Source of the DNA: Clostridiales bacterium CCNA10
GTDB taxonomy: Bacteria; Verrucomicrobiota; Kiritimatiellia; RFP12; UBA1067
Direction of reading: 5' to 3'
Assembly (NCBI GenBank): GCA_963618935.1
Contig: CAVEVC010000075.1
Span: forward strand, 1-41,532
Length of the DNA: 41,532 bases
A model generated the notes under the pieces. That model was not told the DNA's origin. It searched no databases and saw only the letters and a program-made list of their open reading frames with translations. The position numbers and the translations under genes were made by a program. This document shows, in pieces, positions 785 to 40,258 of this stretch. Position 1 is the stretch's first letter; the number at the start of each line of letters is the position of its first letter.

Positions 785-792
785 GCCGCACC

Positions 793-2724
793 ATGGACAA
801 GATCACGAGCAAGGCCGATCTCGACGCCGCGTTCGAGGCCGCGAAGGGGAAGCTGGCCCTCCGCCTCGTCGCCCACGGCGCGATCGACTCGACGAAGAAG
901 GACATTCTCTGCTGCGGCGGCACGGGCTGCCACGCCTCGGCCTCCCAGGCGCTGATGGCGAACCTGCGCGACGAGATCCGCGCGGCCGGGCTGGAGGCGG
1001 ACGTCAAGGTCGTCCAGACCGGCTGCTTCGGCTTCTGCGCCCAGGGCCCGATCGTCAAGGTGATGCCGGACAACGTCTTCTACGTGCAGGTCACGCCGGA
1101 CGACGCGAAGGAGATCGTGCAGAGGCACGTCGTCGGCCACGAGGTCGTGGAGCGCCTCCTCTACGTGGAGCCCACGCTCAAGGCGAAGATCCACGACTAC
1201 GAGAAGATGCCGTTCTACGCGAAGCAGCACCGCATCGCCCTCCGGAACTGCGGCCTCATCGACGCCGAGTCGCTGGAGGACTACATCGCGAGCGGCGGCT
1301 ACCAGGGCCTCGCGAAGGCGCTCACCGCGATGACGCCCGGCGAGGTCGTGCAGGAGGTGCTCAACTCGGGCATCTGCGGGCGCGGCGGCGCGGGCTTCCC
1401 CACCGGCCTCAAGTGGAAGATCGCCGCCGGCGTGAAGGCCGACGAGAAGTACATCGTCTGCAACGCCGACGAGGGCGACCCGGGCGCGTTCATGGACCGC
1501 TCGATCATGGAGGGCGACCCGGGCAGCGTCATCGAGGCGATGGCCATCGGCGCCTACGCGATCGGCGCCCAGCACGGCCTCGTCTACATCCGTGCGGAAT
1601 ACCCGCTCGCGGTGAGCCGCCTCCAGATGGCGATCGACCAGGCGCGCGAGGCCGGCCTGCTCGGCAGGAACGTCCTCGGCACGGACTTCTGCTTCGACAT
1701 CGAGATCAAGCTCGGCGCCGGCGCGTTCGTCTGCGGCGAGGAGACGGCCCTCATCCACTCGATGGAGGGCCAGCGCGGCGAGCCGACGACGAAGCCGCCG
1801 TTCCCCGCCAACGTCGGCGGCGGCTACTGGGGCTGCTCCACGAACGTGAACAACGTGGAGACGTATGCGTCGATCCCCGTCATCCTCGTGAAGGGCGCCA
1901 AGTGGTACTCGCAGATCGGCAACTGGAAGGCCGAGACGGACGAGGAGGGCAACTGGACGAGGACCGTGAGCGGCAACGCGGGCACGAAGGTGTTCGCGCT
2001 CGCCGGCCAGGTCAACAACGTCGGCCTCGTCGAGGTGCCGATGGGCACGACGCTCCGCGAGATCATCTACGACATCGGCGGCGGCATCTCCGGCGGCCAT
2101 GCGTTCAAGGCGGTGCAGACGGGCGGCCCGTCCGGCGGCTGCATCACGGCCGAGAACCTCGACACGCCGATCGACTACATGAACCTCGGCAAGATCGGCT
2201 CGATGATGGGCTCCGGCGGCATGATCGTCCTCTCCGACAAGGACTGCATGCCCGCGATGGCGAAGTTCTACCTCGGCTTCACGAAGGACGAGAGCTGCGG
2301 CAAGTGTACGCCCTGCCGCATCGGCACGCGCCGCATGCTGGAGATGCTCGAGAAGATCTGCGACGGCAACGGCACCGAGGAGATGCTGGAGGAGCTGGAG
2401 GGCCTCGCCAACACGATCAAGGACACCGCGCTCTGCGGCCTCGGCCAGACGGCGCCGAACCCGATCCTCTCCACCCTGCGCTACTTCCGGGACGAGTACA
2501 TCGCCCACGTACGCGACAAGAAGTGCCCCGCCGGCACCTGCACGAAGCTCTACACGCTCAAGATCACGGACAAGTGCAAGGGCTGCACGAAGTGCGCCCG
2601 CAACTGCCCGGTCAACGCGATCGCCGGCACCGTCAAGCAGCTGCACGTCATCGACGCGAAGAAGTGCATCAAGTGCGGCGCGTGCATCGCCGCCTGCCCG
2701 TTCAAGGCCATCGTCAAGGAGTGA
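793..2724 (+). CDS. hydB: NuoF-like flavoprotein subunit of [FeFe] hydrogenase (HydB / beta), FMN/NAD(P)H binding, with extra Fe-S domains
   Basis: The track ORF 559-2724 was trimmed to the ATG at 793 (MDKITSK), 9 nt after the hydC stop. Motifs seen: an N-terminal thioredoxin-like 2Fe-2S segment (CCGGTGCH..GCFGFCAQGP); GRGGAGFPTGLKW and CNADEGDPGAFMDR (NuoF FMN/NADH site); ESCGKCTPCR; and two C-terminal CxxCxxCxxxCP ferredoxin motifs (CKGCTKCARNCP, CIKCGACIAACP). Confidence 0.9.
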   Translation: MDKITSKADLDAAFEAAKGKLALRLVAHGAIDSTKKDILCCGGTGCHASASQALMANLRDEIRAAGLEADVKVVQTGCFGFCAQGPIVKVMPDNVFYVQVTPDDAKEIVQRHVVGHEVVERLLYVEPTLKAKIHDYEKMPFYAKQHRIALRNCGLIDAESLEDYIASGGYQGLAKALTAMTPGEVVQEVLNSGICGRGGAGFPTGLKWKIAAGVKADEKYIVCNADEGDPGAFMDRSIMEGDPGSVIEAMAIGAYAIGAQHGLVYIRAEYPLAVSRLQMAIDQAREAGLLGRNVLGTDFCFDIEIKLGAGAFVCGEETALIHSMEGQRGEPTTKPPFPANVGGGYWGCSTNVNNVETYASIPVILVKGAKWYSQIGNWKAETDEEGNWTRTVSGNAGTKVFALAGQVNNVGLVEVPMGTTLREIIYDIGGGISGGHAFKAVQTGGPSGGCITAENLDTPIDYMNLGKIGSMMGSGGMIVLSDKDCMPAMAKFYLGFTKDESCGKCTPCRIGTRRMLEMLEKICDGNGTEEMLEELEGLANTIKDTALCGLGQTAPNPILSTLRYFRDEYIAHVRDKKCPAGTCTKLYTLKITDKCKGCTKCARNCPVNAIAGTVKQLHVIDAKKCIKCGACIAACPFKAIVKE

Positions 2725-2730
2725 GGCAGA

Positions 2731-2785
2731 AACCGCAAGGGACGGGGGAAAAAACCGCAAAGGACGGGGGAACCCAGGTTCCCCC
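2731..2785 (+). promoter_or_regulatory. hydB-hydA intergenic direct repeat plus hairpin (possible mRNA processing or stability element)
   Basis: AACCGCAAGGGACGGGGGA (2731-2749) is repeated as AACCGCAAAGGACGGGGGA (2753-2771). GGGGGAACC (2766-2774) pairs with GGTTCCCCC (2777-2785). No T-run follows. The hydA Shine-Dalgarno AAGGAAGGA is at 2798-2806. Confidence 0.5.
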
Positions 2786-2815
2786 GAACCCCCTCACAAG
2801 GAAGGAATTTTTGAA

Positions 2816-4582
2816 ATGGCTAACGTAACCGTCATCATCAACGGCACCAAGGTCGAGGTGCCCGCCGGCTCGACGATCCTCGACGCGGCGAACAAGATCA
2901 ACGTCCACATCCCGACGCTGTGCTACTGCCCCGACGTGGGCTGCGGCACGGCGAACAAGCCCGCCTCCTGCCGCCTCTGCCTCGTGGAGGCGACCGGCAT
3001 CCGCGGCCCGCGCAGGATCCTCGTGCCGGCGTGCGCGACCCCGCTCGCGCGCGACGGCGTGGAGGTGTGGACGAACTCGAACCGCGCCCTCAAGGCGCGC
3101 CGCACCGTCCTGGAGCTGCTCCTCTCCGACCACCCGCAGACGTGCCTCACCTGCGCGAAGAACCAGGAGTGCGAGCTGCAGAAGCTCGCCGCCGAGTTCG
3201 GCGTGCGCGAGATCCCGTTCCGCGGCGAGATGAACCAGTTCCCCGTCGACCGGTCCGCCGCCATCATGCGCGACCTCTCGAAGTGCGTGATGTGCCGCCG
3301 CTGCGAGACGGTGTGCAACAAGGTGCAGACCGTCGGCGCCCTCACGGGCAACGGGCGCGGCTTCAACGCCAAGGTCGGAACGGCCTCGATGATCCCGCTC
3401 GCGGACTCGAGCTGCACGTTCTGCGGCCAGTGCGTCAACGTCTGCCCCGTCGGCGCGATCGTCGGCGTGAGCTACGTGAAGGACGTGTGGAAGGCGATCA
3501 ACGACCCCACGAAGACCGTGATCGTGCAGACCGCCCCCGCCGTGCGCGTCGCCATCGGCCAGGAGTACGGCTTCAAGCCGGGCGAGCCCGTCACGGGCAA
3601 GCTCGTCGCCGGCCTCCGCCGCCTCGGCTTCGACAAGGTGTTCGACACCGACTTCTCCGCCGACCTCACCATCATGGAGGAGGGCCACGAGCTCGTCGAG
3701 CGCGTGAAGGCCGGGAAGAACCTCCCGATCCTCACCTCCTGCTGCCCCGGCTGGATCAACTTCCTCGAGCACCACTACCCCGACCTGCTGGACATCCCGT
3801 CGAGCTGCAAGAGCCCGCAGCAGATGTTCGGCGCGATCGCGAAGACCTACTACGCCGAGAAGATCGGCGTGAAGCCCGAAGACCTCGTGGTCGTCTCCAT
3901 CATGCCGTGCCAGGCGAAGAAGTACGAGGCCGCGCGCCCCGAGTTCGCCCCCAACGGCGTGTGGGACGTCGACTACGTCGTCACGACGCGCGAGCTCGGC
4001 GCGATGCTCCACGAGGCCGGCGTCAACCTCGCCAACCTCGAGGACGAGGACTACGACAGCCCGCTCGGCGAGTCCACCGGCGCCGGCGTCATCTTCGGCG
4101 TGACGGGCGGCGTGCTGGAGGCGGCCCTCCGCAGCGTCCACACGATGCTCACGGGCGAGAACCTCGCCGGCGACGCGATCAACTTCCGCGCCGTGCGCGG
4201 CCTCGACGGCGTGAAGGAGGCGAAGGTGGAGGTGGCCCCCGGCATGACGGTGAACGTCGCCATCGCCTCCGGCCTCGGCAACGCCCGCAAGGTGCTCGAC
4301 ATGGTGCGCGCCGACCGCGGCCGCTTCCAGGCCATCGAGATCATGGCCTGCCCCGGCGGCTGCATCAACGGCGGCGGCCAGCCCTACATCCGCGAGGACC
4401 GCCAGGGCGCGCTGGAGCGCCGCATGAAGGGCCTCTACGCGGAGGACGCCGGCAAGCCCTGCCGCCTCTCGCACGAGAACCCAGACATCAAGAAGCTCTA
4501 CGCGGAGTTCCTAGGCGAGCCCGGCTCGGAGAAGGCGCACCGCCTCCTCCACACGGCCTACCACAACAACCCGCGCGCCTAG
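2816..4582 (+). CDS. hydA: [FeFe] hydrogenase catalytic subunit (HydA / alpha; HndD-like)
   Basis: 588 aa. It has an N-terminal 2Fe-2S ferredoxin fold, a His-ligated cluster region (HPQTCLTCAKNQECELQ) and two 4Fe-4S motifs (CVMCRRCETVC, CTFCGQCVNVCP). All three H-cluster signatures are present: TSCCPGW, MPCQAKKYE and EIMACPGGCINGGGQP. Confidence 0.93.
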   Translation: MANVTVIINGTKVEVPAGSTILDAANKINVHIPTLCYCPDVGCGTANKPASCRLCLVEATGIRGPRRILVPACATPLARDGVEVWTNSNRALKARRTVLELLLSDHPQTCLTCAKNQECELQKLAAEFGVREIPFRGEMNQFPVDRSAAIMRDLSKCVMCRRCETVCNKVQTVGALTGNGRGFNAKVGTASMIPLADSSCTFCGQCVNVCPVGAIVGVSYVKDVWKAINDPTKTVIVQTAPAVRVAIGQEYGFKPGEPVTGKLVAGLRRLGFDKVFDTDFSADLTIMEEGHELVERVKAGKNLPILTSCCPGWINFLEHHYPDLLDIPSSCKSPQQMFGAIAKTYYAEKIGVKPEDLVVVSIMPCQAKKYEAARPEFAPNGVWDVDYVVTTRELGAMLHEAGVNLANLEDEDYDSPLGESTGAGVIFGVTGGVLEAALRSVHTMLTGENLAGDAINFRAVRGLDGVKEAKVEVAPGMTVNVAIASGLGNARKVLDMVRADRGRFQAIEIMACPGGCINGGGQPYIREDRQGALERRMKGLYAEDAGKPCRLSHENPDIKKLYAEFLGEPGSEKAHRLLHTAYHNNPRA

Positions 4583-7522: not shown

Positions 7523-10456
7523 ATGCGAACAAGGACATTCTGCGCGGCGGCCGGCCTGGTGGCGGCCGCGGCGGCGCTGACGGGATGCAACGAGGCGGCG
7601 AACGCGCGGCGGACGACGTCCCTCTGCGGCGACGGCTGGCGCTTCGCGAAGGACGCGGGCGGCGCGCTCAAGGCGGAGGCGGCGGACTTCGACGACGCGG
7701 CCTGGCAGGCGGTCGAGGTGCCGCACGACTGGGCGATCTCGGGCCCGTTCAGCCCCGAGGCGGACGGCGGCTCGGGCAAGCTGCCCTGGCGGGGCGTGGG
7801 CTGGTACCGCCGCGCGTTCGCGGTCTCGGCGGAGACGGCCCGCGCCGTGCAGGCGGGCGGCGCGCTCTGGCTGGAGTTCGACGGCGTGATGGCGCGCCCG
7901 GAGGTCTACGTGAACGGCGCCCGCGCGGGCGGGTGGAACTACGGCTACATGGGCTTCCGCGTGGACGTGGCGCCGTTCGTGCGGGAAGGGGAGAACGTCC
8001 TCGCCGTGCGCGCCGACACGCGCGACCACCATTCGCGCTGGTACCCGGGCGCGGGCATCTACCGGGCCGTGCGGCTCGTCGCGGCGCCGGCGGTCCACGT
8101 CGCCCCGGGGACGGCGTTCGTGACGACGCCGGGCGGCGCGCGGGAAAGCGCGAGCGTGCGCGTCGCGTTTGAGGTCACGAACCGCCTCGACGCCGCCGTC
8201 TCGGTGGACGCGGGCGTGCGCCTCGAAGGCGCGGGCGCGAAGGCGGGGGAGGCGAGGCGGATCGGCGCGAAGGGCCGCGCGACGTTCGTCTTCGACCTGG
8301 AGGTGGTGAACCCGCGCCTCTGGGACGTCGAGAGCCCCGCGCTCTACACGGCGGAGGTCGGCGTGCGGGCGAAGGGCGCGCTCGACGCCGAGACGGTGCG
8401 CTTCGGCATCCGCACGGCCGAGTTCACGGCCGACGACGGCTTCCACCTGAACGGACGGCGCGTGCAGCTCAACGGCGTCGACCTCCACTCGGACATGGGA
8501 CCCCTCGGCATGGCCTTCAACCGCAGCGTCATGCGCCGCCAGCTGACGATCATGAAGGACATGGGCGCGAACGCCCTCCGCACGAGCCACAACGCCTGCG
8601 ACCCGCAGGTGCTGGACCTCTGCGACGAGCTCGGCATCGTCGTCTGGAACGAGTGCTTCGACAAGTGGGACGGCACGAGCGGCCGGCGGAAGGGCGAGAG
8701 CCTGGAGGACTACGTGGCGGAGAACCTGCGCGCGTTCGCGCGCCGCGACCGCAACCACCCCAGCGTCGTCGTCTGGTCGATCGGCAACGAGATCACGCCG
8801 AACGGCTGGGACTGGGGCGGGAAGAACCCGAAGGCGCAGGACGGCATGAGCGCCGAGCGCTTCCGCCTCTTCCGCGCCGCGATCCGCGAGCTCGACCCGA
8901 CGCGCCCCGTCGGCATCGGCTGCTGCCACGGCCAGGCCGTCGACACGGGCATGTTCGCGGAGCTGGACCTGACGGGCTGGAACTACGGCGCGCAGTACCG
9001 CAAGGTCAAGGCGCGCCACCCCGACAAGCCCGTCGTCTACTCCGAGAGCGCGAGCGCGCTCAGCAGCAGCGGCTTCTACGAGCAGCCCCCGGCGGCGACG
9101 AAGACGGACTACGCCGTCGCGCGGCGCGAGGTGGGCGCCTACGAGCACAACGCCGCCCCCTGGAGCGACATCCCGGACGTCGAGTTCGCGCGCATGGAGG
9201 AGGACCGCTACTGCGCGGGGGAGTTCGTCTGGACGGGCATCGACTACCTCGGCGAGCCGACGCCCTACGTGCAGGGCGGCTCGTTCCCGATGATGAAGGA
9301 CCTCAAGAAGGGCGAGCTCGCGCGCAGCTCCTACTTCGGCGTCGCGGACCTCATGGGCCTGCCGAAGGCGCGCTACTGGCTCTACCGCTCGCACTGGAAC
9401 AGGAAGGACAGCACGGTGCAGGTCACCCCGCACTGGAACTGGCCCGATCCCGCGTCCAAGGCGGGCCCGCCCGCCGCCGTCCCCGTCTACGTCTACACGG
9501 ACGGCGACGAGGCCGAGCTGTTCCTGAACGGCCAGTCGCTCGGGCGCCGGCGGAAGGGCGTGTCGCAGCGCCCGGCGAACTTCGCGGCGGGCAGGCCCGT
9601 GGACGCGAGCAGCGTCGAACGGCGCGGCGACCGGGTCAACGCCCCGTCCCACGCGGTCGACGGCGAAGACGGCACGCGCTGGTGCGCGAGCGGGCCCGAG
9701 AAGGGCGCCTGGTGGCAGGTCGACCTCGGCGCCGTGCGCGCGTTCCGCACCGTCCTCGTCTCGGGCGAGCAGGCGGACGGCAACTACGCCTGGACGGTCC
9801 GCGTCTCCGACGACGGCAAGGCCTGGCGCGACTTCGCGAAGAAGCCGCTGGGCGCGGCGCAGAAGCCCGTCGCCGGCACGGCGGCGCGCGCCCGGTTCGT
9901 GCGCGTCGTCTTCGACGACCTGCGGGACGGGACGTGGCCGTCCATCCGCGAGGTCGTCGTGAGCGACTGCGCGGATGCGTTCCGCCTCAACCCCTACTAC
10001 GACGTGTGCGACCGCTACCGCCTGCGCTGGTTCGACGTGCCCTACCGCCCGGGCGAGCTGAAGGCCGTCGCCTACAAGGGCGGGTCGCCGATCGGCGAGG
10101 CCGTGGTGCGCACGGCCGAGAAGCCCGTCGCGGTGAAGCTCGCCGCCGAGGCGGCCGCGCTGCCGGCCGACGGCGAGACGTGCGTCTTTGTGCAGGTCGA
10201 CGTGGTGGACGCGAAGGGGACGCGCGACCCGTGGGCGACGGACCGCGTGTCGTTCGAGCTGACCGGCCCGGGGAAGATCCTCGCCGTCGGCAACGCCGAC
10301 CCGCGCGCCCACGAGGCGTTCACGAAGGTCGATTCGCACCCGCTCTACTTCGGCAAGGCCGTCGCCGTCGTGCGGCGCGACAAGGGCGCCGCCGGGCCCA
10401 TCGTCCTGAAGGCCGCCGTCAAGGGCCTGAAGCCCGCCGAGGTCGAATTCCGCTAG
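7523..10456 (+). CDS. glycoside hydrolase family 2 lipoprotein with a discoidin (F5/8 type C)-like domain
   Basis: The track ORF 7271-10456 was trimmed to the ATG at 7523. It has a lipoprotein signal MRTRTFCAAAGLVAAAAALTGC. The GH2 sugar-binding, Ig and TIM layout includes NHPSVVVWSIGNE (acid/base Glu). A later segment, DGEDGTRWCAS..WWQVDLG, is typical of F5/8 type C domains. Confidence 0.85.
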   Translation: MRTRTFCAAAGLVAAAAALTGCNEAANARRTTSLCGDGWRFAKDAGGALKAEAADFDDAAWQAVEVPHDWAISGPFSPEADGGSGKLPWRGVGWYRRAFAVSAETARAVQAGGALWLEFDGVMARPEVYVNGARAGGWNYGYMGFRVDVAPFVREGENVLAVRADTRDHHSRWYPGAGIYRAVRLVAAPAVHVAPGTAFVTTPGGARESASVRVAFEVTNRLDAAVSVDAGVRLEGAGAKAGEARRIGAKGRATFVFDLEVVNPRLWDVESPALYTAEVGVRAKGALDAETVRFGIRTAEFTADDGFHLNGRRVQLNGVDLHSDMGPLGMAFNRSVMRRQLTIMKDMGANALRTSHNACDPQVLDLCDELGIVVWNECFDKWDGTSGRRKGESLEDYVAENLRAFARRDRNHPSVVVWSIGNEITPNGWDWGGKNPKAQDGMSAERFRLFRAAIRELDPTRPVGIGCCHGQAVDTGMFAELDLTGWNYGAQYRKVKARHPDKPVVYSESASALSSSGFYEQPPAATKTDYAVARREVGAYEHNAAPWSDIPDVEFARMEEDRYCAGEFVWTGIDYLGEPTPYVQGGSFPMMKDLKKGELARSSYFGVADLMGLPKARYWLYRSHWNRKDSTVQVTPHWNWPDPASKAGPPAAVPVYVYTDGDEAELFLNGQSLGRRRKGVSQRPANFAAGRPVDASSVERRGDRVNAPSHAVDGEDGTRWCASGPEKGAWWQVDLGAVRAFRTVLVSGEQADGNYAWTVRVSDDGKAWRDFAKKPLGAAQKPVAGTAARARFVRVVFDDLRDGTWPSIREVVVSDCADAFRLNPYYDVCDRYRLRWFDVPYRPGELKAVAYKGGSPIGEAVVRTAEKPVAVKLAAEAAALPADGETCVFVQVDVVDAKGTRDPWATDRVSFELTGPGKILAVGNADPRAHEAFTKVDSHPLYFGKAVAVVRRDKGAAGPIVLKAAVKGLKPAEVEFR

Positions 10457-10480
10457 GCGCCGCGCGGGATGCCGCCCTCG

Positions 10481-10515
10481 GGCGGCCCGCCCTCTCTTGG
10501 CGGGCCGCCTTTCTT
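10481..10515 (+). terminator. rho-independent terminator of the GH2 gene
   Basis: Perfect 11-bp stem GGCGGCCCGCC (10481-10491) / GGCGGGCCGCC (10499-10509) with loop ctctctt, followed by TTTCTT (10510-15). It marks the last high-GC sequence before the island. Confidence 0.8.
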
Positions 10516-10650
10516 ATGCTATACCAACGCGCGCTTCAGCACCGTTGTGGCAAGCACGCTTGAATTCAGACGACACCGCACCAGCTCTCTGCGAGAGGCA
10601 GAACGCAAAAACTGCATCTGCCAGTAAATAAGGATTAAAAACAGAATTGT

Positions 10651-11670
10651 TCATTGAAGCGAGCCTTCCTCTGGCTGCCTCGGTTTTTTAGGCTCGAGAT
10701 TTGTATCGTTAGAGGTTGGGTTGTAGATGGAAAGAAACTTCAACGCCGCGCCTCTTTTCCCCCCAGCGAACTGGACATGGCAAATCTGAAAATAATTTGC
10801 CGCCTTAAGTGTGCCATCCTCGTTCAACTTGCATCTGCTTCTGATAACAAGAACTTTTGACGGATCAAACAATTCCCGTTCATATCCTATGACATTTCCC
10901 CGCTTGTCGCGGCCGGCAACACGTTCCGAATAGGAAAATTCCGTCTTGTAATCTTCGTTGGTATTGGCAGTATAGATACCAATGTATTCGCTCCCGTGCG
11001 TCTTTGTCGCATAGTATCCGCCCGCGTATTTTTCTGTGAACCGCATTTTCAAGGCCATCCCTTTATACTCTTTATTATGCCATAGCCCGTCCCAATCAAA
11101 CATAACCTCCACATCAGAAGCGGTGCCGATGCCATACGGTTTTACAAAATCGTACTTCATCAAATCAAACCCAATCCACTTCTGCAGTTCCATGGTCCTT
11201 TTCCACTCTGGAGCATTGGCGATTCGTGCCTGTGGATTTTTTATGGGCAGTAATACGATTTTCCTAGCCATACCCCAAGGCTGCCATTTTGAGCCTTTTA
11301 CTTCATGTTCATGCCCCATACTGATGAAACTGACAAAATCGTTCGACCGATAATATCCTTCTCGCGAGACTTCTATTTCCAATGCCCCTTTCGTTTTCCC
11401 CTCGACCGCACAAACGCCATTAGCGTCTGTCTGGGTAATCACCCGCCGTCCTTTGGAACGGTCGGCCATATCGAAGAAAACATTGACGACGGCATCTTTA
11501 ACGGGGTCTCCCACGTCGTCCACAATTCTAAACTCAACCCTTGCCCATGCTCCTTTGTCATATGCTTTCTGGAAATCCGTGAGGTCGATTCCAGGCAAGG
11601 CGCATACTGGTAAAGCCCATAATGCCAGCATTGACATCAAGCAACCGTTAGCAAAGCCTCCTCTTTTCAT
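10651..11670 (-). CDS. secreted hypothetical protein (candidate partner or immunity protein of the giant hydrolase)
   Basis: 339 aa, low-GC codon usage. N-terminal signal peptide MKRGGFANGCLMSMLALWALPVCALPG. A segment RVEFRIVDDVGDPVKDAVVNVFF..TDANGVCAVEG resembles carboxypeptidase-regulatory-like beta-sandwich domains. Its start ATG overlaps the stop of the upstream gene (ATGA at 11667-11670). Confidence 0.8.
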   Translation of the reverse strand: MKRGGFANGCLMSMLALWALPVCALPGIDLTDFQKAYDKGAWARVEFRIVDDVGDPVKDAVVNVFFDMADRSKGRRVITQTDANGVCAVEGKTKGALEIEVSREGYYRSNDFVSFISMGHEHEVKGSKWQPWGMARKIVLLPIKNPQARIANAPEWKRTMELQKWIGFDLMKYDFVKPYGIGTASDVEVMFDWDGLWHNKEYKGMALKMRFTEKYAGGYYATKTHGSEYIGIYTANTNEDYKTEFSYSERVAGRDKRGNVIGYERELFDPSKVLVIRSRCKLNEDGTLKAANYFQICHVQFAGGKRGAALKFLSIYNPTSNDTNLEPKKPRQPEEGSLQ

Positions 11671-14600
11671 TCGAGTTCTCCTTCTTCTTTGATTTTCTCA
11701 AAAAACCTAAACACGAAAAAATATGCCATGTCCTTTATGTCGGAATGCAGCCATCTGTCGCCCCAGCTCCCGAACAGTCCATTGGGACGCGAGACCCAAC
11801 CATTGGGGCGAGATATGCCATTTTGCGTCTCATCAGTAGAGTTTAAGTTGTACATCGAGTCGTTCATTGAATATGGCCCCCATTTCATGGCGCCGCTTGC
11901 CGGCGTTCTTGATGGTATGCCCTTTGCGAGAAGCGCTCCTCGCAATAAAAGAGGGAGGGAGTTCGTGTTCATGCTCGCGGGTTGAAGTTTGAATACGGTG
12001 CTGGTCTTCAACTCCGCCAACGACATCTCCCACGCATGAGTCGGCTGTATCGTGTTATAGCCCAATGCATTTTCACGAATGCCCCAACCAGCCCAATCAG
12101 TTGTTCCCGTTCGGGCGACTAGGCCCTTGCGTCCTTTCCACAGTTCCTGCTTGTGCCATGAGTAATGCTCGAACATCTGATCCCAGTTCTCATACCCGTC
12201 AATAGCCCAGATGTTGTTGTTGCGTTCAAGTTCAAGAACATGGTCACCGGTGGAATAGAAGTTCACCGCGTAATCTGCGACATCGGCAAATCTGCCACCC
12301 CACGTCAGCAATTGCCTATCATCCCCAGCCTCTTCTTCAAAGCACTTATACCACTCGTTGGCAAACGCCGTTCTTGGATATTCGTTCCAATCCTTATGGA
12401 CGAGAACATTGGTCGGAGTCAAAGTCGTATCATACGCCTCCGCAGGGACGGCGGAGTTGCACATGATGTACTTCGACACCTGCAGCCCATAGTCTTGTAT
12501 CATCGACGAGACGACCATGTTGCCGAGCGAATGCGCCATAATGACCTTGTCGCCTTGGATGTTAGAGAGAATCGGTGCAAGTTGGCTTGCAACAACGAAG
12601 GCATTGGACGCATTTTCGTGGTAGTTCGCCGGGGCTCCGATGTTGCTTCGCCAATCGACATTGTAGAAATCTGCGTGGATGCCGGAAACCCACAGCCGCT
12701 TGAAGAGTATGTCGCCCCAGGATTCGGCCTGCGCTTCGCTGACATTTGCGCCGTGCAGGAAGATGAGGGATTTCGTGTTCTGATCATCCCATATACTATG
12801 GACTGCCGTTGAGCGGATGACGCTGTCATCGGACAGCTGCCGGCTGTTTATCCAACTGTACATCTGCTTCACGGGCAGAATCGTCATGGGCACGGAGTAT
12901 GTGTATAGCAGCTCATCGCCCACTTTTATGTCAATGCGCATTAAGGCGTACGAGGATTTCGCCTCGCACACCATAAGCCCCGAATTCTCCGAGAACTGGC
13001 TGATGGCCGAGTACGGAAGTTCAACTCCACCAACCGGCAGCGCGAGAAGAGATGCGGAGGACAAAGGTTGTCCTGCAAGGGTTGTGGCGTTCATGGTCTG
13101 CACGGAACCGGCAACGTTCCACGGAATGTCAGCAAGGCAGAAGTTGAATGAGTTTGTGTTGCCCCATTCGGGCTTGATCTCATACGAGACTCGATCGCCC
13201 CATGCCGCCTTGAATTTCTCCAAGTCCAAGGCGACGGGGAAGAAATTTATCAAGTCAAACGTACCATTGACAACAAGGTCTGAGGAATTCGCCTTCGTGT
13301 AATCCCTGTTAGGGACAATATAATCCCCATATATCTTGTCCTCGTTAACCCAGTAGTAGAACGTACGGTTGTCGAACCAGGCAGCCGAGTCGCCATCGTC
13401 GATGGAACCGTCGCGGCTGATGTCGAGACGCATCGGCGGGCGCAGCGATGTGATGCGCTGGACTGCCTGGTCCTGCACAAACTTTCCGTCGACCACGTTC
13501 CAATAGCGGAACACGAGACTGACCGCACCTGGGGTGGACGAAGTGATGTAGATTGGGAGCTCGGAGGATTCTCCACTGGTTGCGCGTTTCATCAGGGCTT
13601 TCCAGTAGGCCATTGGAAGGTCTTTCATGGGCGTAGTATCCGTGTCCAGAAGCTTGCGATAGTTCCACGTGCGCCGGTCGTAGTACCAGATCTTGAACTG
13701 GCCGGTCGCGTTCGCAAGTTCGAGATGGACATTGCCGTCCGGGAGCTTGACGTTCGTGACGAGGCGCAGGGTCGGCGCATGCCACAGGTTCGTGCAGACT
13801 GCCATGGGATAGCCGAAGCCGCTGTTTAGCGCGTTGTACGTCGGCAGATTCACTTCGCTGTCGCCCTTGATCGCGATGCCGAGCACGGTCTTGTTGCGCT
13901 GCTGGTAGATTTCCCCGTTGCGGGAGAAAGCGAGTATCGCGTCACCCACGGCCGAGCTCGGGTAGACTCCCGCAAGGTTGACGTCGCATGAGGTCTCCGT
14001 CTTGCTGAAGTTCTTGCCGTTCGAGTCGATGAGGCGCAGCCGGTAGGACTTGTAAGCCACGCCCACGTAGTTCGTCCAGTGGTCGGGACACGGACAGCAG
14101 TTCCGACGTTCGGTTGATACGTCGAGGTGTATCTGCTCGTAGAACGGAGGATCGCGGATGTACAGGACACCGCCGAGATGCTGGACGTTCCGCACGGAAT
14201 TCGTGTAGTCATCCTCGTGGAGGTGGGCGCATTGATCGTATGGGCAGGAATGTGTCGGGCATTCATCGTCAAAGTCGGTATCGTCAATTGGATTGGGTTC
14301 GCCTCCCTGATTGCCGCAGTCGAAACTGCACCATCCGTCGCACGCTCCCCAATAGCAGCGCCAATGCTCGTCATGGTTGTCGTCGGTTTCGTCGGAATCG
14401 TCGCCGTCGCCATCTGAATACCACGGCGGGTCTTCCGGCTGGTCGGGATTCTCCGAATCTGGATCGGGCGGGCGAGGACAGAAGCGGACAGTCTGATTAT
14501 ATGTAGTCTGCCCAAAGAGATACTGCGGATGTGCAAGTGTGTAGGTAATGCCGCCGGTGCTTCTTGCGGAGAAATTGCCGGTGATTGTCGCCGACCGTGG

Positions 14601-16361
14601 AGGATGGTTCTCGGCTTCAACATTATTTCCGCCCTGCCATGTGCAGCTCAATTGCCCGGCATCGCGGCTCGCCGGCAAGCTAACGCTTTTCTTCCTGGCG
14701 TTGAAATCGTGGATGCACGGTGTCGTCGCCACCGTGTTTGGGAAGTTGATGCGTCCAAAAGAGTTGAATGACGGCAGGACGCCAAATGCGAAATCCGCCG
14801 AATCGAGAGCGACCTGCAGCATGGGATCGCCACGCAGATAGAGCGGATACGTTTCGCCTTTCACTATCTGCACCAGCAGGGTTGTTTGTGGCGGTGCGGG
14901 AGTCAGCAGCCTCAATTGCGGTGCGCCCTGCGGCTGTTGTGACGGCGGAACAAGCGGAACGACTTGGTCGCCCACTATCAAATCGCCCGTACCGGAGCCG
15001 GACACGGACACACGAAGAACGGCCACGCTGTCGGATGATTGCGGATAGGCAAACGCTCCATTTGTGCTGCCGGAGTAGAACACGTGTTCGAGGGCTGTGT
15101 TCGTCGAGCCTTCTGGGTAGGCGAACGGATGGATTTCGCCAATCTTGAGCGCCATGCCATCAGAATAGGTGTCGTTTACGGAATGCGGATTCAACGGATC
15201 GGCGCGATAGATGAAGAGCTCTTCGCAATCCGAAAGCCCGTCATAGTCCGTGTCGGGGTTGTGGGGATTTGTGCCGTAGACGAAGAGCTCGTCGATTGTC
15301 GGCAAGCCGTCACCGTCCCAGTCTTGATTAGTCATATCCTCCTCGGAGAGAGGATAAAATGCCATCGATGTGATGTTTGTCGGAATCGAGTTGGTAGACC
15401 ACTCGTTGCCGCCGAATGCCGCGCCTACGAGGATGTTTGTGGCGGTGTCCGTGTTCAGCCGCGAGAGGTCGTAGCGGTAGATGAACTGGCCGTCCGGCTT
15501 GAACTCTGCCTGGAACGAGAGCGTGGCATCGGTGTCGCGGTCAAGAAGAGCGTTCTGCCAAGTCATGAGGAACGAGTTCCAGGGAGTGATTGCGTACCAC
15601 ACTTGGCTTGGCTTGTCGGCTTCGGCGAGCCAGTCCCAGTTCGCCTCCGGCACGATACCGAGCGAGGCCGTGATCGGGGCGAACCAGTAGTTTGCGGCGA
15701 TTGTGCCGCCGGTCTCGCGTATCAACGGCTCGATCTTGCCGAAAGCATAGACGCGCAGCCGATTCACCTCGTTTGTGGAGACTTGGAACGCCCAGTTCGT
15801 GAGTGCCACGTAAATCCAGTCCGTCGCCGCACCGAACGCCCGCCAGTCTGAGACGATGGTCGCGTCGGCAATCGGCGAGAAGTCGAACTGCTCGTCCGCC
15901 CCGATGCGTGTCTGGACAAAACCTCGCTCGAAGTCGGCGGCGGTGATCGTGCGCATTGTGTTCGTCGACGTGATGATGTCAATGTCGGGGAGATCGGGCA
16001 TTGCGCCGCTGTTCAGCGGCTGAAACCCGATGTGCTGTGCGCCTATTTCGGATTGCCGCTGTACGGCTCCCTGCGAAAGTCCGCCTGACGGCATGACCAT
16101 CTGCGGGACATTGTTCGTTCCGCCGCTGCCGTCGCCGTCACCATCTCCGCCACCGCCGCCCGGCTTGACGCTGGCGAAAACCCATAATGCGATGAAGAGC
16201 GAGCCGAGGATGATGCGCCCGGCCTTTGTCTGCTTCTTGAAGAACGCCGCGAAGTCCCGCAGCGGATGGACGTTTTTCTCGCGGCAGACGAGGATCAGCC
16301 ACGCGCAGAAGAACATCCACGCGGAAAACAGCAAGGCGCCCGTCCAGACCTTCGCAATCAT
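11667..16361 (-). CDS. giant (1564 aa) membrane-anchored multidomain protein with TSP3-like Ca-binding repeats and a C-terminal alpha/beta-hydrolase (lipase/esterase-like) domain
   Basis: There are two N-terminal hydrophobic helices (aa 7-26 and 48-65), then a GGGGGDGDGDGSGG linker. DWDGDGLPTIDELFVYGTNPHNPDTDYDGLSDCEELFIYRADPLNP (aa 347-392, nt 15186-15323) matches thrombospondin type 3-like repeats. An acidic Cys/His-rich block spans aa 631-765 (nt 14067-14471). The C-terminal domain has LIFLHG (oxyanion HG), a nucleophile elbow MAHSLGN (Ser1278, codon 12528-12530), STGDHV (Asp1373) and RWLHSD (His1539). Confidence 0.85.
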   Translation of the reverse strand: MIAKVWTGALLFSAWMFFCAWLILVCREKNVHPLRDFAAFFKKQTKAGRIILGSLFIALWVFASVKPGGGGGDGDGDGSGGTNNVPQMVMPSGGLSQGAVQRQSEIGAQHIGFQPLNSGAMPDLPDIDIITSTNTMRTITAADFERGFVQTRIGADEQFDFSPIADATIVSDWRAFGAATDWIYVALTNWAFQVSTNEVNRLRVYAFGKIEPLIRETGGTIAANYWFAPITASLGIVPEANWDWLAEADKPSQVWYAITPWNSFLMTWQNALLDRDTDATLSFQAEFKPDGQFIYRYDLSRLNTDTATNILVGAAFGGNEWSTNSIPTNITSMAFYPLSEEDMTNQDWDGDGLPTIDELFVYGTNPHNPDTDYDGLSDCEELFIYRADPLNPHSVNDTYSDGMALKIGEIHPFAYPEGSTNTALEHVFYSGSTNGAFAYPQSSDSVAVLRVSVSGSGTGDLIVGDQVVPLVPPSQQPQGAPQLRLLTPAPPQTTLLVQIVKGETYPLYLRGDPMLQVALDSADFAFGVLPSFNSFGRINFPNTVATTPCIHDFNARKKSVSLPASRDAGQLSCTWQGGNNVEAENHPPRSATITGNFSARSTGGITYTLAHPQYLFGQTTYNQTVRFCPRPPDPDSENPDQPEDPPWYSDGDGDDSDETDDNHDEHWRCYWGACDGWCSFDCGNQGGEPNPIDDTDFDDECPTHSCPYDQCAHLHEDDYTNSVRNVQHLGGVLYIRDPPFYEQIHLDVSTERRNCCPCPDHWTNYVGVAYKSYRLRLIDSNGKNFSKTETSCDVNLAGVYPSSAVGDAILAFSRNGEIYQQRNKTVLGIAIKGDSEVNLPTYNALNSGFGYPMAVCTNLWHAPTLRLVTNVKLPDGNVHLELANATGQFKIWYYDRRTWNYRKLLDTDTTPMKDLPMAYWKALMKRATSGESSELPIYITSSTPGAVSLVFRYWNVVDGKFVQDQAVQRITSLRPPMRLDISRDGSIDDGDSAAWFDNRTFYYWVNEDKIYGDYIVPNRDYTKANSSDLVVNGTFDLINFFPVALDLEKFKAAWGDRVSYEIKPEWGNTNSFNFCLADIPWNVAGSVQTMNATTLAGQPLSSASLLALPVGGVELPYSAISQFSENSGLMVCEAKSSYALMRIDIKVGDELLYTYSVPMTILPVKQMYSWINSRQLSDDSVIRSTAVHSIWDDQNTKSLIFLHGANVSEAQAESWGDILFKRLWVSGIHADFYNVDWRSNIGAPANYHENASNAFVVASQLAPILSNIQGDKVIMAHSLGNMVVSSMIQDYGLQVSKYIMCNSAVPAEAYDTTLTPTNVLVHKDWNEYPRTAFANEWYKCFEEEAGDDRQLLTWGGRFADVADYAVNFYSTGDHVLELERNNNIWAIDGYENWDQMFEHYSWHKQELWKGRKGLVARTGTTDWAGWGIRENALGYNTIQPTHAWEMSLAELKTSTVFKLQPASMNTNSLPLLLRGALLAKGIPSRTPASGAMKWGPYSMNDSMYNLNSTDETQNGISRPNGWVSRPNGLFGSWGDRWLHSDIKDMAYFFVFRFFEKIKEEGELE

Positions 16362-16365
16362 GGCA

Positions 16366-16905
16366 TTACCTTAATTTGATCACGAAGAAATTGTATCCGA
16401 CCTCGCAGCGGACCCATTCGCCCGGCGTCTCAGCGCCGCGTCTGACCACGCGCATCATCTTCCAGTTGTTCCTGTAGAGCCAGGCCGGAGGGTGCGTTGT
16501 GGAAAGAGCGGCGAATGCCGTCTCGCCCCCGCAAGTGGCGGAGAAATCCGCCAGAACCGAATCCATGTCAAGCGCCATGTGTACGTCGAAAACGCCAGCC
16601 TGCGCGTTGTTGGCGGCATCCGTCTCAATCCTCTCCCAGGTGCGGGCGTTTTCGATGAAGTAGCCCCCCCCCCCCCCCCGCCAGCCATAGACCGTATCGA
16701 TCTCCTCGACATCGAGGATGCCGTTCGTGTTCACATCGCATCCGAATCCGACCTCAAGATCGTTGTATTCGGTTCCGTTCAGCTGCAGATGCAGTTTCAC
16801 CTCCCGGACGTCTGTCCGGCAATCGAAGACAAGACAGCCCCCGTTGCCGATCTCGTCGGCCGGCAATCCACTCTTGAAGGAGAACGATTTTATCGACAGT
16901 TTCAT
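16366..16905 (-). CDS. hypothetical 179-aa protein, first gene of the island operon, containing a G16 homopolymer and an EF-hand-like loop
   Basis: The ORF has no signal peptide. DVNTNGILDVEE (aa 57-68, nt 16702-16737) fits the 12-residue EF-hand loop pattern D-x-N-x-N-G-x-L-D-x-x-E. The G tract encodes R76-G81. Its stop codon TAA lies inside the AAGG Shine-Dalgarno of the next gene, with a 4-nt gap. Confidence 0.7.
   Translation of the reverse strand: MKLSIKSFSFKSGLPADEIGNGGCLVFDCRTDVREVKLHLQLNGTEYNDLEVGFGCDVNTNGILDVEEIDTVYGWRGGGGGYFIENARTWERIETDAANNAQAGVFDVHMALDMDSVLADFSATCGGETAFAALSTTHPPAWLYRNNWKMMRVVRRGAETPGEWVRCEVGYNFFVIKLR
16664..16679 (-). repeat. homopolymeric tract: 16 consecutive C on the + strand (G16 on the coding strand) inside the 179-aa ORF
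   Basis: Counted directly: tag + 7 C (16664-16670) + 9 C (16671-16679) + g. It is read as cgg ggg ggg ggg ggg ggc, giving R-G-G-G-G-G. A second frame through the tract is also open (track ORF 16455-16712) and stops at 16455. Confidence 0.95.
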
Positions 16906-16934
16906 GGTGGCTTTTTCGCATCATTCGCCCATGG

Positions 16935-16954
16935 GTTTTTCGTGGCGAAAAAAC
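16935..16954. promoter_or_regulatory. near-perfect palindrome between the island promoter and the first start codon (operator-like or 5' UTR hairpin)
   Basis: GTTTTTCG (16935-16942), tgg, then CGAAAAAAC (16946-16954): 7 perfect pairs plus one bulged A. It lies 8 nt downstream of the -10 box (minus-strand sense) and 29 nt upstream of the ATG at 16905. Confidence 0.55.
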
Positions 16955-16961
16955 ATGTGAC

Positions 16962-16970
16962 ATGATACCA
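16962..16970 (-). promoter_or_regulatory. extended -10 box TGGTATCAT for the island operon
   Basis: The + strand atgatacca (16962-16970) reads TGGTATCAT on the minus strand, about 57 nt upstream of the ATG at 16905. No convincing -35 was found. Confidence 0.4.
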
Positions 16971-17026
16971 AAAATTCCACTTGCCGTGGCACGTTCCCCT
17001 TGTCTTGTCACCGGCTGAATCCCGAC

Positions 17027-17055
17027 TTACAGACCCAGCCGAAATCTGCTATACT
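17027..17055 (+). promoter_or_regulatory. putative ileS promoter
   Basis: TTACAG (17027-17032), a 17-nt spacer ending in TGC, then TATACT (17050-17055). It is followed by a leader of about 90 nt containing a GCAAC..GTTGC hairpin. The GGAG Shine-Dalgarno is at 17141-17144. Confidence 0.5.
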
Positions 17056-17153
17056 ACCCGGTCAATCACAGGAAGGCCCTTGCCAGACAGCCCTTCGCAA
17101 CGAGTGTTGCGCTGGAAACTGGCTGGCGGGGTAGTTGATTGGAGCAGCGCGAG

Positions 17154-20500: not shown

Positions 20501-22177
20501 ATGAAAATCGCCATTGGCTCCGATCACGGCGGCTTTGAACTGAAGAAGGCGATCCTCGCCAGGTACACGGACGCGGACGTGCTGGACTTCGGTCCGGAGA
20601 CGGCGGACCCCTGCGACTATCCCGACTACGCCGACGACGTCGCGGAGGCGGTCGCCAGCGGCGCGGCCGACTTTGGCGTGCTCGTCTGCACCACGGGCAT
20701 GGGCGTGACGATGGCCGCGAACCGCTTCCAGAACGTGCGCGCCGCGCTCTGCCGCGACGAGAAGGACGCCGCGCTCGCGCGCGCCCACAACGGCGCGAAC
20801 GTCCTCTGCCTCGGCCAGGACCGCACGAAGCCCGCCGCCGCCCTCCGCATCCTCAGGACGTTCGTGGCGACGAAGGTCGACGCGGCCGGCCGCCACGCGC
20901 GCCGCCGCGCGAAGCTGGAGCGCGCGAGGCGCCTGAGCGACGTCAGCGGCCTCGCGAAGGCCGACCCCGAGGTCTACGCCGCGGTCAAGGCCCAGGTCGT
21001 GCAGGAGGACACGGAGATCAACCTCATCGCCTCCGAGAACACGTCGAGCCGCGCCGTGCGCCTCGCCGCCGGGTCCGTCCTCATGAACAAGTACGCCGAG
21101 GGCTACCCGGGAAAGCGCTGGTACTCGGGCTGCCTGCCGGTGGACGCGGCGGAGGAGCTGGCCTGCCGCCGCGCGTGCGCGCTCTTCGGCGCGGAGCACG
21201 CGAACGTGCAGCCGCACTGCGGCTCGGCCGCGAACATGGCCGTCTACTTCGCCACGATCAAGCCCGGCGACACGATCATGTCGCTCGCGCTCGACCAGGG
21301 CGGGCACCTCTCGCACGGCTCGCCCGTCAACTTCTCGGGCAAGATCTACCGCATCGTCCCCTACACGGTCGACCGCAAGACCGAGCGCATCGACTACGAC
21401 GCCCTCGAGAGGCAGGCGCTGGAGGTGAGGCCGCAGATCCTCCTCACGGGCGCCTCGGCCTACCCGCGCACGATCGACTTCAGGCGCATCCGCGAGATCT
21501 GCGACAAGGCGGGCTGCATCATGCTCGTGGACATGGCCCACATCGCGGGCCTCGTCGCGGGCGGCGCGCACCCATCGCCCGTCCCCTATGCGGACTTCGT
21601 GACGACGACGACGCACAAGACGCTCGGCGGCCCGCGCGGCGGCATGGTCCTCTGCAAGGAGAAGTGGGCGAAGGCGCTCGACAGCGCGGTCTTCCCCGGC
21701 ATGCAGGGCGGCCCGCTCGAAAACGTCATCGCCGCGAAGGCGGTCCTCTTCCGCGAGTGGATGGGCCCCGAGAAGAAGGGCTACGCCCAGCAGGTCGTCA
21801 AGAACTGCCAGGCGATGTGCAAGGCGGTGCAGGACCGCGGCTACCGCATCGTCTCGGGCGGCACGGACAACCATCTCTTCCTCGTGGACGTCAAGTCCAC
21901 GAAGGGCATCACGGGCAAGGAGGCCGCCGCCGCCCTCGACGCGGCCGGCATCGTCGTCAACAAGAACACGATCCCCTACGACGCCGAGTCGCCGTTCAGG
22001 ACCTCCGGCATCCGCGTGGGCACGGCCTCCATCACGACGCGCGGCATGAAGGAGAAGGAGGCCGCGAAGATCGGCGGCTGGATCGCGGACGTCCTCGACG
22101 ACATCGCGGACGTGAAGGTGCAGGCGAAGGTCAAGGCGAAGGCGAAGGCCCTCACGGCCCGGTTCCTCGTGCCCTGA
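20501..22177 (+). CDS. glyA: bifunctional fusion: ribose-5-phosphate isomerase B (N-terminal about 150 aa) plus serine hydroxymethyltransferase (C-terminal about 410 aa)
   Basis: The N-terminus [57 protein letters not shown] matches the RpiB/LacAB family, including the active-site Cys region. From [51 protein letters not shown] (PLP-Lys) it is a full-length SHMT. It is a single uninterrupted 558-aa ORF. Confidence 0.9.
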
Positions 22178-39809: not shown

Positions 39810-39864
39810 TTTCGCATTTCTTTTGCAGATATGATGAAATTTGGTCGGTCGGGCATTTGCCCCC

Positions 39865-39893
39865 TTGCATGAATCACGGAGTTTTAGTACACT
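39865..39893 (+). promoter_or_regulatory. putative dedicated acpP promoter in the AT-rich fabG-acpP spacer
   Basis: TTGCAT (39865-39870), a 17-nt spacer, then TACACT (39888-39893). The TAAGGAGAA Shine-Dalgarno is at 39911-39919. Confidence 0.5.
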
Positions 39894-40252: not shown

Positions 40253-40258
40253 TCTAGG

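Follow-up and report, generated by a model that had tools for sequence, protein, structure and literature searches.

What is the block of low-G+C DNA that stands between a GH2 gene and ileS in a Kiritimatiellia genome, how did it come to be there, and what might its genes do? The locus lies in contig CAVEVC010000075.1 of the genome deposited as Clostridiales bacterium CCNA10 (assembly GCA_963618935.1), and the whole stretch analysed, 41,532 nt of the forward strand, is called the window throughout. A preliminary description had seen here horizontally acquired cargo encoding one functional module on the minus strand: a small cytoplasmic-looking protein, a giant membrane-anchored lipase-like protein and a secreted partner (ORF1, ORF2 and ORF3, in that order). 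Kiritimatiellia, most of which have not been cultured, are abundant in the rumen and in the gut of horses and humans and, to our knowledge, little appears known of how they compete. We show that window positions 10526-17046 are a 6.5-kb insertion into the 108-nt GH2-ileS spacer of a genome of ~70% G+C. Its cargo is an undescribed, taxon-restricted family that looks like the effector-immunity theme in a new form.

A 6.5-kb insertion in the GH2-ileS spacer

Scanning metagenome contigs with the IleRS protein yielded four relatives with an empty site (L083-L086), whose flanking proteins are 88-98% identical overall to those of the window (IleRS 90%, GH2 91%, the upstream hydrogenase genes 96-98%). 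In all four the GH2 stop codon and the ileS start codon are 108 nt apart, the terminator hairpin is kept and no module is present; the junction reads ...TTCTTATGCTATACTACCCG... The window reads ...TTCTTATGCTATAC|CAACGCG... at the left junction and ...GAAATC|TGCTATACTACCCG... at the right one, and its insert is bracketed by an exact 8-bp direct repeat, TGCTATAC, of which the relatives with an empty site have a single copy. Convincing flanking repeats had been denied at the outset, and a repeat finder used alone indeed gave nothing meaningful; the 8-bp repeat is visible only through the empty-site alignment. The features of the two junctions are:

10480-10510, plus strand: terminator hairpin of GH2 (host), recovered by the terminator scan directly left of the insertion point, where it had been placed beforehand; the same hairpin precedes the empty junction in L083-L086
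10517-10524, no strand: left copy of TGCTATAC, resembling a target-site duplication; in the empty site it belongs to the ileS extended -10 (TGcTATACT)
10526-17046, minus strand: inserted island, 6,521 bp, 54.7% G+C, missing from the GH2-ileS junctions of the four relatives
10526-10654, minus strand: ORF3b', a second ORF3 paralogue of which 43 codons remain at the 5' end, covering its signal peptide and the start of the mature protein (blastn, translation, alignment)
17047-17054, no strand: right copy of TGCTATAC, here within the ileS extended -10

The base composition of the insert sets it apart from its host. G+C is 0.547 in the insert against 0.700 in the remaining ~35 kb of the window; in 500-nt steps it falls from 0.74 at 10001-10500 to 0.48 at 10501-11000 and ranges from 0.46 to 0.61 across 10501-17000, with flanks at 0.64-0.75. 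The tetranucleotide distance between insert and host is 0.054, where 6.5-kb segments of the host give 0.011 +/- 0.003 (maximum 0.019), an offset of ~15 standard deviations. At third codon positions the G+C content (GC3) is 0.51 in ORF3, 0.70 in ORF2 and 0.75 in ORF1, and 0.93-0.99 in every credible flanking gene. The abrupt drop and recovery first noticed in the sequence is confirmed by all three measures. An early spot estimate of 43-55% G+C holds for the 3' half of the island and not for the rest, and the remark that its codons end mostly in A or T was overstated for ORF1 and ORF2, given their GC3 values. Low G+C is, moreover, an imperfect mark of transfer. At the 82 loci fetched for the analysis of module neighbours (L001-L082), ORF3-family genes have 0.44-0.51 G+C and a GC3 of ~0.45-0.55 in hosts of ~0.55-0.70 G+C, with a mean GC3 difference from the host of -0.24; part of the anomaly thus belongs to the ORF3 family itself, whichever of the examined hosts carries it. 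Even so, the island is strongly foreign in composition. ORF2 of the window, at 0.56 G+C, matches its closest homologues, which come from genomes of 0.55-0.64 G+C, and the GC3 of the window's ORF1 and ORF2 lies 0.2-0.25 under the host, whereas the family average for both genes tracks the host. The empty site in close relatives and this foreign composition together uphold the horizontal acquisition that had been proposed.

The left end of the island lies inside a gene. ORF3b' is cut exactly at the left junction, and its ATG overlaps the stop codon of ORF3 (ATGA). It is 67% identical to the N-terminus of the ORF3 of L029, and blastn matches the region to the ORF2-end/ORF3-start junctions of L029, L017, L033, L005 and L012. 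The last six codons of ORF3 (EEGSLQ and the stop), with the ATGA that follows, are nearly identical to such junctions in L029, L017 and L005, and this tail stems from an ORF2 3' end, the scar of recombination between cassettes. The operon had been described as three genes and self-contained; the trio is conserved, but a fourth, truncated gene accompanies it and the island ends within that second ORF3.

Four contigs of the same species (L167-L170; 96-99% nucleotide identity) carry the island at the same site with three microhomology-flanked deletions, at window 16709-16552, 16335-15155 and 14711-14082. These remove part of ORF1, a G tract included, and the N-terminal half of ORF2; ORF2 is disabled and ORF3 survives intact. 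These deletions and the lost export signal of the window's ORF1 (below) show that the island is decaying. The locus therefore occurs in three allelic states: empty (the relatives), full (the window) and eroded (these contigs). Whatever the function of the module, they offer a natural experiment of unusual clarity, and the series shows the import of a gene cassette without mobile-element machinery.

The island is a cut-out fragment and not a mobile element. It was excised from a larger gene array in another, lower-G+C Kiritimatiellia lineage, and would have entered without machinery of its own, as incoming chromosomal DNA that was integrated illegitimately or at a staggered break. The preliminary description saw no integrase, transposase or tRNA, and our scans agree: there is no tRNA or Rfam family in the whole window, and no integrase- or transposase-sized ORF fits inside the island. 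What weighs against this mechanism is that the 8-bp duplication also fits transposition by a transposase that was never part of the fragment, and transposases of several families typically duplicate 8-9 bp. The island could then be what is left of a transposon or another mobile element which duplicated its target and has since lost its transposase and terminal repeats. We consider this improbable: the insert has no terminal inverted repeats that we could find and no trace of a transposase or integrase, its left end cuts a module gene in the middle of its codon series, and mobility genes are not among the conserved neighbours at the 82 loci. A phage- or plasmid-borne element was rejected for want of support from the collections searched, since the viral contigs gave only TSP3-repeat matches for ORF2 and none for ORF3, and the plasmids gave no match to the module; the same absence counts against the transposon. 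Alternatively, the locus could be ancestral here and deleted in the relatives, its low G+C being intrinsic to the gene family, as the composition of ORF3 genes in every host would allow; deletions do occur within the island. This is very unlikely and already largely refuted. The junctions of the relatives are clean, with a single 8-bp copy and with terminator and promoter intact; the low GC3 of ORF1 and ORF2 departs from a family average that follows the host, the insert ends inside a truncated gene, and modules occupy many different sites in other genomes. Deletion in the relatives was rejected in favour of insertion, and the transfer event itself is ordinary, though unusually well documented.

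The three-gene module and its proteins

More than 300 homologues of ORF2 were found, mostly full-length among those listed and 38-77% identical, and a scan of species-representative genomes gave 164 stretches matching it. Their hosts are almost all gut, rumen or faecal metagenome-assembled genomes (MAGs) labelled Kiritimatiellae or Kiritimatiellia or, under an older naming, Lentisphaerae or Verrucomicrobia; several MAGs hold three or four loci, and many contigs break within the ORF2 gene. The sole conserved neighbours at the 82 loci are ORF1, ORF2 and ORF3 (33, 61+5 and 51 loci) and an FMN reductase (nine). A homologue of ORF1 lies just upstream of ORF2 in 33 of the 82, and homologues of ORF3 lie just downstream in 51, as 82 genes in arrays of one to five. 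Because ORF1 and ORF3 homologues recur in this way, the trio is a real, self-contained module. Its ORF1-ORF2-ORF3 order recurs at dozens of unrelated chromosomal loci and in other genomes, where the three genes co-occur repeatedly, in support of the initial view that they form one unit. The module is among the most expanded and most recombining gene families of Kiritimatiellia; we found no description of it in the literature.

Several neighbourhoods deserve mention in their own right. At nine loci of different MAGs (L001 16725-17240, L004 17326-17841, L069 16744-17259 and six others) the module is closely followed by the same gene, for a 171-aa FMN reductase/flavodoxin-like protein, a pattern that suggests that one lineage of the module had a single ancestral site in the chromosome. 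At L004 and L005 (1-9400) and L001 (800-9300) modules adjoin a bAvd/23S-IVP four-helix protein, a Ser/Thr kinase and phosphatase, GmrSD, HNH, SLFN/AlbA and DUF932 genes, together with a second giant ORF of more than 1,400 aa; none of these defence-like or variable genes is a conserved neighbour. In related genomes other modules, only 35% identical (L044 5001-14185, L080, L081), adjoin homologues of genes of the window, namely the hydrogenase genes at 272-4582, the RpiB-SHMT gene at 20501 and the A2M/PBP1c pair at 27609-35542, in different positions and orientation. The chromosomal neighbourhood of the window seems to accept modules repeatedly.

The genes of the island and their parts, in order of transcription, are:

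16906-17046, minus strand: non-coding upstream end of the insert, with a candidate extended -10 (16962-16970) and a 7+7 palindrome (16936-16952)
16366-16905, minus strand: ORF1, 179 aa, a degenerate copy with an EF-hand-like Ca loop (DxNxNGxLDxEE; alignments of at least 30 homologues, weak EF-hand matches)
16664-16679, minus (coding) strand: G16 homopolymer in ORF1, changing GWRGGRYF to GWRGGGGGYF (+6 nt, with loss of a nearly invariant Arg)
11667-16361, minus strand: ORF2, 1,564 aa, giant protein predicted to be exported (more than 300 homologues; AlphaFold 2 (AF2) model of residues 365-1564, pLDDT 82.9)
16167-16349, minus strand: two hydrophobic helices with a conserved basic loop (EKNVHPLRDF..FFKKQxKxGR), ORF2 residues ~5-65 (sequence, family consensus)
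15162-15974, minus strand: conserved beta-rich N-terminal domain, then bacterial TSP3 Ca-binding repeats, residues ~130-400 (invariant columns)
13437-15044, minus strand: Ig-like beta-sandwich stalk, residues ~440-975 (AF2; Foldseek matches to Ig/FnIII strings, pilins and S-layer proteins)
12780-13436, minus strand: PAD N/middle-like domain, residues ~976-1194 (Foldseek 9huh_A, PAD4, probability 1.00, 329 aligned columns)
11670-12779, minus strand: alpha/beta-hydrolase, lipase/esterase-like, residues ~1195-1564 (invariant motifs; PF12697 and PF05990 in relatives; Foldseek)
10651-11670, minus strand: ORF3, 339 aa, with signal peptide, beta-sandwich N-domain and all-beta C-domain (AF2 pLDDT 88.4)

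The gene boundaries, the strand, the 4-nt gap between ORF1 and ORF2 and the ATGA overlap between ORF2 and ORF3 are all as first described; in the gap an AAGG overlaps the ORF1 stop codon.

ORF2 carries the hydrolase at the end of a long exported structure. Its N-terminus is predicted either to anchor the protein in the inner membrane as a hairpin or to serve as a bipartite, extended signal peptide, and is followed by a Gly/Asp-rich linker. Other members of the family have an ordinary signal peptide in place of the two helices, so that the bulk of ORF2 is predicted to be extracytoplasmic. PF18884 was found in 17 of 26 relatives, and a PDB profile match to the TSP3-like stretch of Bap covers the same kind of repeat; an acidic, Cys-rich linker (~residues 628-707) interrupts the stalk. 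The PAD-like domain opens a conserved, swappable C-terminal unit that is joined to many different N-terminal regions. As a 590-aa query this unit recovers 1,869 representative clusters (E <= 0.001), always C-terminal in proteins of 580-3,407 aa whose N-terminal parts hold TSP3, RCC1, beta-helix, PMP, cadherin, Big or MAM repeats; named members are all 'hypothetical' or called after their repeats. Within the hydrolase, FLHG (1201-1204), AHSLG at 1276 with Ser1278 (codon 12528-12530) and His1539 in WLHSD (codon 11745-11747) are invariant in alignments of 26, 58 and 30 sequences. A nucleophile elbow, an HG oxyanion motif, a conserved His and, in the AF2 model, beta-alpha-beta topology are all present, as expected of an alpha/beta-hydrolase. 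Relatives reach Pfam Abhydrolase_6 (PF12697) and DUF900 (PF05990); the window protein itself falls below every Pfam threshold. Single and profile PDB sequence searches with ORF2 matched the TSP3-like stretch only, Foldseek of its model returned Ig-like strings, PAD4 and weak esterases and no Tle or other toxin structure, and profile-profile comparison of ORF1 and ORF3 with ORF2 gave no internal homology. The earlier picture of a membrane-anchored, lipase-like protein holds, as a prediction from the anchor and the invariant motifs.

The secreted nature of ORF3, likewise proposed beforehand, also holds as a prediction, since all homologues examined have Sec or lipoprotein signals. Its N-domain is a transthyretin/CarboxypepD_reg-like beta-sandwich (weak PF13620), and family alignments show a conserved NPTxNDTNLEP tail at the C-terminus. 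Foldseek of the model matched the generic N-terminal sandwich and found no PDB counterpart of the C-domain; PDB sequence and profile searches gave nothing usable. A translationally coupled (ATGA) ORF3 homologue follows the hydrolase gene even in distant members.

ORF1 was taken at first for a cytoplasmic protein, a view that we abandon. All of the more than 30 homologues examined have a signal peptide and a first conserved strand, both replaced by unrelated sequence in the window copy. The family is one of small secreted proteins with an EF-hand-like loop and no other recognisable feature, and a PDB profile search matched EF-hand loops only. The G16 tract, in frame in the window and deleted as a region in L167-L170, may act as a slipped-strand switch, or may reflect mutational decay or an error of assembly. 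Upstream, the extended -10 (TGGTATCAT, 16970-16962, minus strand) and the operator-like palindrome reported for the operon exist as motifs, but a two-hexamer promoter scan found nothing upstream of ORF1, and window 16906-17046 has no blastn similarity to the upstream regions of ORF1 in relatives.

Comparison of the loci with the window reveals ORF2 as a mosaic, 70-84% identical in some segments and 25-35% in others, with identity switching at domain boundaries, notably near residue 975. How closely two hydrolases agree predicts how closely the ORF3 proteins next to them do: Spearman's coefficient is 0.81 for 895 module pairs and 0.85 when loci are compared with the window, and it is 0.78-0.85 between the C-terminal unit and ORF3. 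The stalk and N-terminal segments have no such predictive value. For the 895 pairs an all-pairs correlation was used, single-linkage typing being too coarse. ORF3 diverges faster than the hydrolase, and extra ORF3 copies are often nearest to the first ORF3 of modules in other genomes that have a different hydrolase type; the second ORF3 of L076 (14474-15505) is 99% identical to the first of L068 (12643-13674), from modules whose hydrolases are 59% identical. Downstream of complete modules at L028, L069, L057 and L058 there are orphan hydrolase fragments without an export signal, some of them frameshifted, each followed by its own ORF3. As in polymorphic toxins, then, a C-terminal domain and its downstream gene are exchanged as a cassette, and orphan cassettes lie downstream. 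Such patterns are population-genetic hallmarks of effector-immunity cassettes (CdiA-CT/CdiI, Rhs, Tle/Tli), and cassette-like co-variation and orphan fragments are shown here for the Kiritimatiellia module.

Two details of these arrays may be added. The near-identity of the ORF3 genes in L076 (RUG12088) and L068 (RGIG2266) points to a very recent exchange of a single ORF3 gene. Inside the ORF3 array of L069 an EcoRI-type adenine methyltransferase gene (12909-13811) lies between an ORF3 and an orphan hydrolase fragment.

Possible function and resemblance to known systems

We tentatively favour, at a little less than even confidence, a reading in which ORF2 is an exported lipase-like effector and ORF3 its cognate, periplasmic, immunity-like partner. 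The functional core would be the C-terminal unit of ORF2 (a PAD-N/M-like domain and a Ser-His alpha/beta-hydrolase) with ORF3, in a taxon-restricted, multi-copy module. ORF2 would cross the inner membrane by means of its N-terminal hairpin or signal sequence and would act as an antagonistic effector that attacks membranes, its lipase/esterase-type hydrolase carried at the end of a long Ig-like, Ca-binding stalk. ORF3, translationally coupled and bearing a Sec or lipoprotein signal, would bind and neutralise the cognate hydrolase in the periplasm of the producer, extra ORF3 paralogues would guard against the hydrolase types of neighbouring cells, and ORF1 would be a small secreted Ca-binding accessory protein. 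What the analysis demonstrates is the insertion, the module, its architecture, the conserved catalytic motifs and the cassette-like co-variation with its orphan fragments; the substrate, the toxicity, the inhibition by ORF3, the export route and the target are inferred. The reading is favoured because of the mosaicism of ORF2, the co-variation and arrays of ORF3, the orphan fragments, the predicted periplasmic location of ORF3, which fits immunity because a membrane-attacking lipase would be met there, and a bactericidal DUF900 hydrolase: a secreted alpha/beta-hydrolase of this type from an archaeon has been reported as a bactericidal phospholipase (bioRxiv 10.64898/2026.06.10.730825). The faster divergence of ORF3, its survival in the eroded alleles, the ATGA coupling kept in distant members and the invariant catalytic Ser and His also count in favour of the reading.

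Several points count against an effector-immunity pair. At no locus is the module linked to machinery for secretion or delivery or to a trafficking domain (PAAR, VgrG, Rhs, TPS, LXG). The hydrolase is the most conserved part of ORF2, and classical polymorphic toxins have C-terminal domains of different folds. Physical linkage alone, or a dedicated chaperone, also predicts co-variation of hydrolase and ORF3; neither PDB profile searches nor Foldseek tie the ORF3 fold to a known immunity family, and some distant members of the family occur as single copies in housekeeping surroundings. The hydrolase resembles solved esterases and lipases only weakly (Foldseek, TM ~0.3), and hydrolysis of lipids by ORF2 is itself a prediction.

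The preliminary description could place the module in no described system, and this stands: Pfam, NCBIfam and PADLOC gave nothing above threshold for the three window proteins, and PDB sequence search and Foldseek gave no assignment. The closest parallel is with the Tle1-5/Tli pairs of the type VI secretion system (T6SS), in which a gene for a GxSxG-type alpha/beta-hydrolase likewise lies directly upstream of one for an exported periplasmic or lipoprotein partner, the partner often occurs in tandem paralogous arrays, and the loci are variable and horizontally exchanged. In contrast to Tle proteins, no Tle-family Pfam domain (DUF2235, Lipase_3, DUF3274, PGAP1-like, PLD) is listed for the window protein or for the 56 family members scanned (26 + 30), and no linkage to VgrG, PAAR, Hcp or T6SS was seen over the 82 loci; ORF2 has its own Sec-type N-terminus and a stalk of ~1,100 aa, and the fold of ORF3 is new. 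CdiA-CT/CdiI and Rhs-CT/RhsI loci resemble the module in that the C-terminal unit and its downstream partner form a swappable cassette with breakpoints at a domain boundary, in their displaced orphan C-terminal fragments with partner genes downstream, and in the presence of several loci per genome; the recombination scar of the window falls exactly at a toxin-end/immunity-start junction. Unlike polymorphic toxins, which bear unrelated folds, the C-terminal units of the module have one enzyme fold (30-88% identity; the 1,869 clusters), and its N-terminal parts vary as much as its C-terminal ones. Contact-dependent inhibition (CDI) systems differ further: Pfam scans gave no TPS domain, FHA repeats or VENN/PT motif, and neither CdiB nor any conserved transporter is a neighbour. 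Nor are RHS or PAAR matches listed or a PxxxxDPxGL demarcation motif present, as in Rhs/YD-repeat toxins, and the RtxA-type glycine-rich repeats, cysteine protease domain and type I secretion linkage of MARTX are absent from Pfam scans and neighbours. Membership of Tle, CDI, Rhs and MARTX was rejected on the absence of these defining features.

Looser likenesses are found elsewhere. In the LipA/Lif systems of Pseudomonas and Burkholderia a lipase-type gene is followed by a translationally coupled gene for a lipase-specific envelope protein; but Lif is helical and membrane-anchored (PF03280) where ORF3 is all-beta with a cleavable signal and no PF03280 match, and Lif genes occur neither in divergent tandem arrays nor with orphan lipase fragments. 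In several relatives the hydrolase comes nearest, among Pfam families, to DUF900 (PF05990; P0277, 24.3 bits against a cut-off of 20.5), and the archaeal 'cinquedea', a DUF900-type protein, is secreted and kills bacteria, a likeness drawn by description only; it is a single-gene unit, unlike the module, and has no partner gene. The ~220 residues before the hydrolase superpose on the non-catalytic N and middle domains of PAD4 and have acidic motifs like its Ca sites, whereas the catalytic deiminase domain is absent from ORF2, with the alpha/beta-hydrolase in its place. Overall the module behaves most like Tle/Tli pairs and orphan-cassette polymorphic toxin loci, yet lacks their defining features.

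Another account of the module would make ORF2 a surface or periplasmic enzyme for nutrient acquisition or adhesion, a stalk-displayed esterase or lipase acting on host or dietary substrates, with ORF3 as a steric chaperone or activator (lipase-foldase-like) or a substrate-binding lipoprotein and the whole as mobile niche-adaptation cargo. The adhesin-type N-terminal repeats of the wider family (TSP3, cadherin, Big, beta-helix, PMP, RCC1, MAM) would suit it, as would the hosts, which are gut and rumen glycan degraders, and the GH2 gene beside the island; some ORF3 homologues are lipoproteins with beta-sandwich domains, like surface glycan-binding proteins, lipase-foldase pairs are likewise adjacent and specific, and single-copy members stand in housekeeping contexts. 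This account is plausible, but we regard it as the less likely one, for a chaperone or binding partner would not be expected in up to five divergent copies, some cognate to foreign hydrolases, nor in units of an orphan hydrolase fragment with ORF3; the all-beta ORF3 is at odds with the helical Lif foldases, and intense mosaicism with several modules per genome suggests diversifying rather than purifying selection. A role of the module in anti-phage defence or abortive infection, with the lipase as effector, is scarcely credible. Some modules of relatives do adjoin defence-like genes (HNH, SLFN/AlbA, GmrSD, kinase/phosphatase), but these are not conserved neighbours at the 82 loci, PADLOC gave no match (E <= 0.1), and all three family proteins have export signals or membrane anchors and not the features of cytoplasmic sensors; the candidate was rejected on the missing PADLOC match and the predicted extracytoplasmic location of its parts.

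In its widest form the effector-immunity reading would make the module an undescribed system for antagonism between bacteria (or against eukaryotes), confined to Kiritimatiellia and related Planctomycetes-Verrucomicrobia-Chlamydiae (PVC) bacteria. It would comprise a Sec-exported, stalk-mounted lipase effector independent of known contact-dependent secretion systems and a new-fold family of periplasmic immunity proteins, diversified as cassettes and spread through gut and rumen by horizontal transfer; this we put forward as a real but doubtful possibility. If the effector-immunity reading is true, the module adds a new family of lipase effectors, a new immunity fold and possibly a new route of giant-protein export in PVC bacteria, and would serve as a marker for strain-level competition in gut metagenomes.

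Neighbouring genes in the window

The genes that flank the island are of a housekeeping kind: a HydABC-type hydrogenase, a nucleotidyl transferase, GH2, IleRS, an RpiB-SHMT fusion, a major facilitator superfamily (MFS) transporter and an alpha-2-macroglobulin/PBP1c pair. Just right of the junction the leader of ileS has 74 nt (window 17061-17134) in the place of 14 nt in the empty-site relatives; this stretch contains a short hairpin, GCAACGAGTGTTGC, and has no Rfam match. A second, smaller dip in G+C (0.57) occurs at 39501-40000, around a minus-strand ORF at 39892-40605 with a GC3 of 0.80. At 20501-22177 ribose-5-phosphate isomerase B (RpiB) and serine hydroxymethyltransferase (SHMT) are fused in one ORF.

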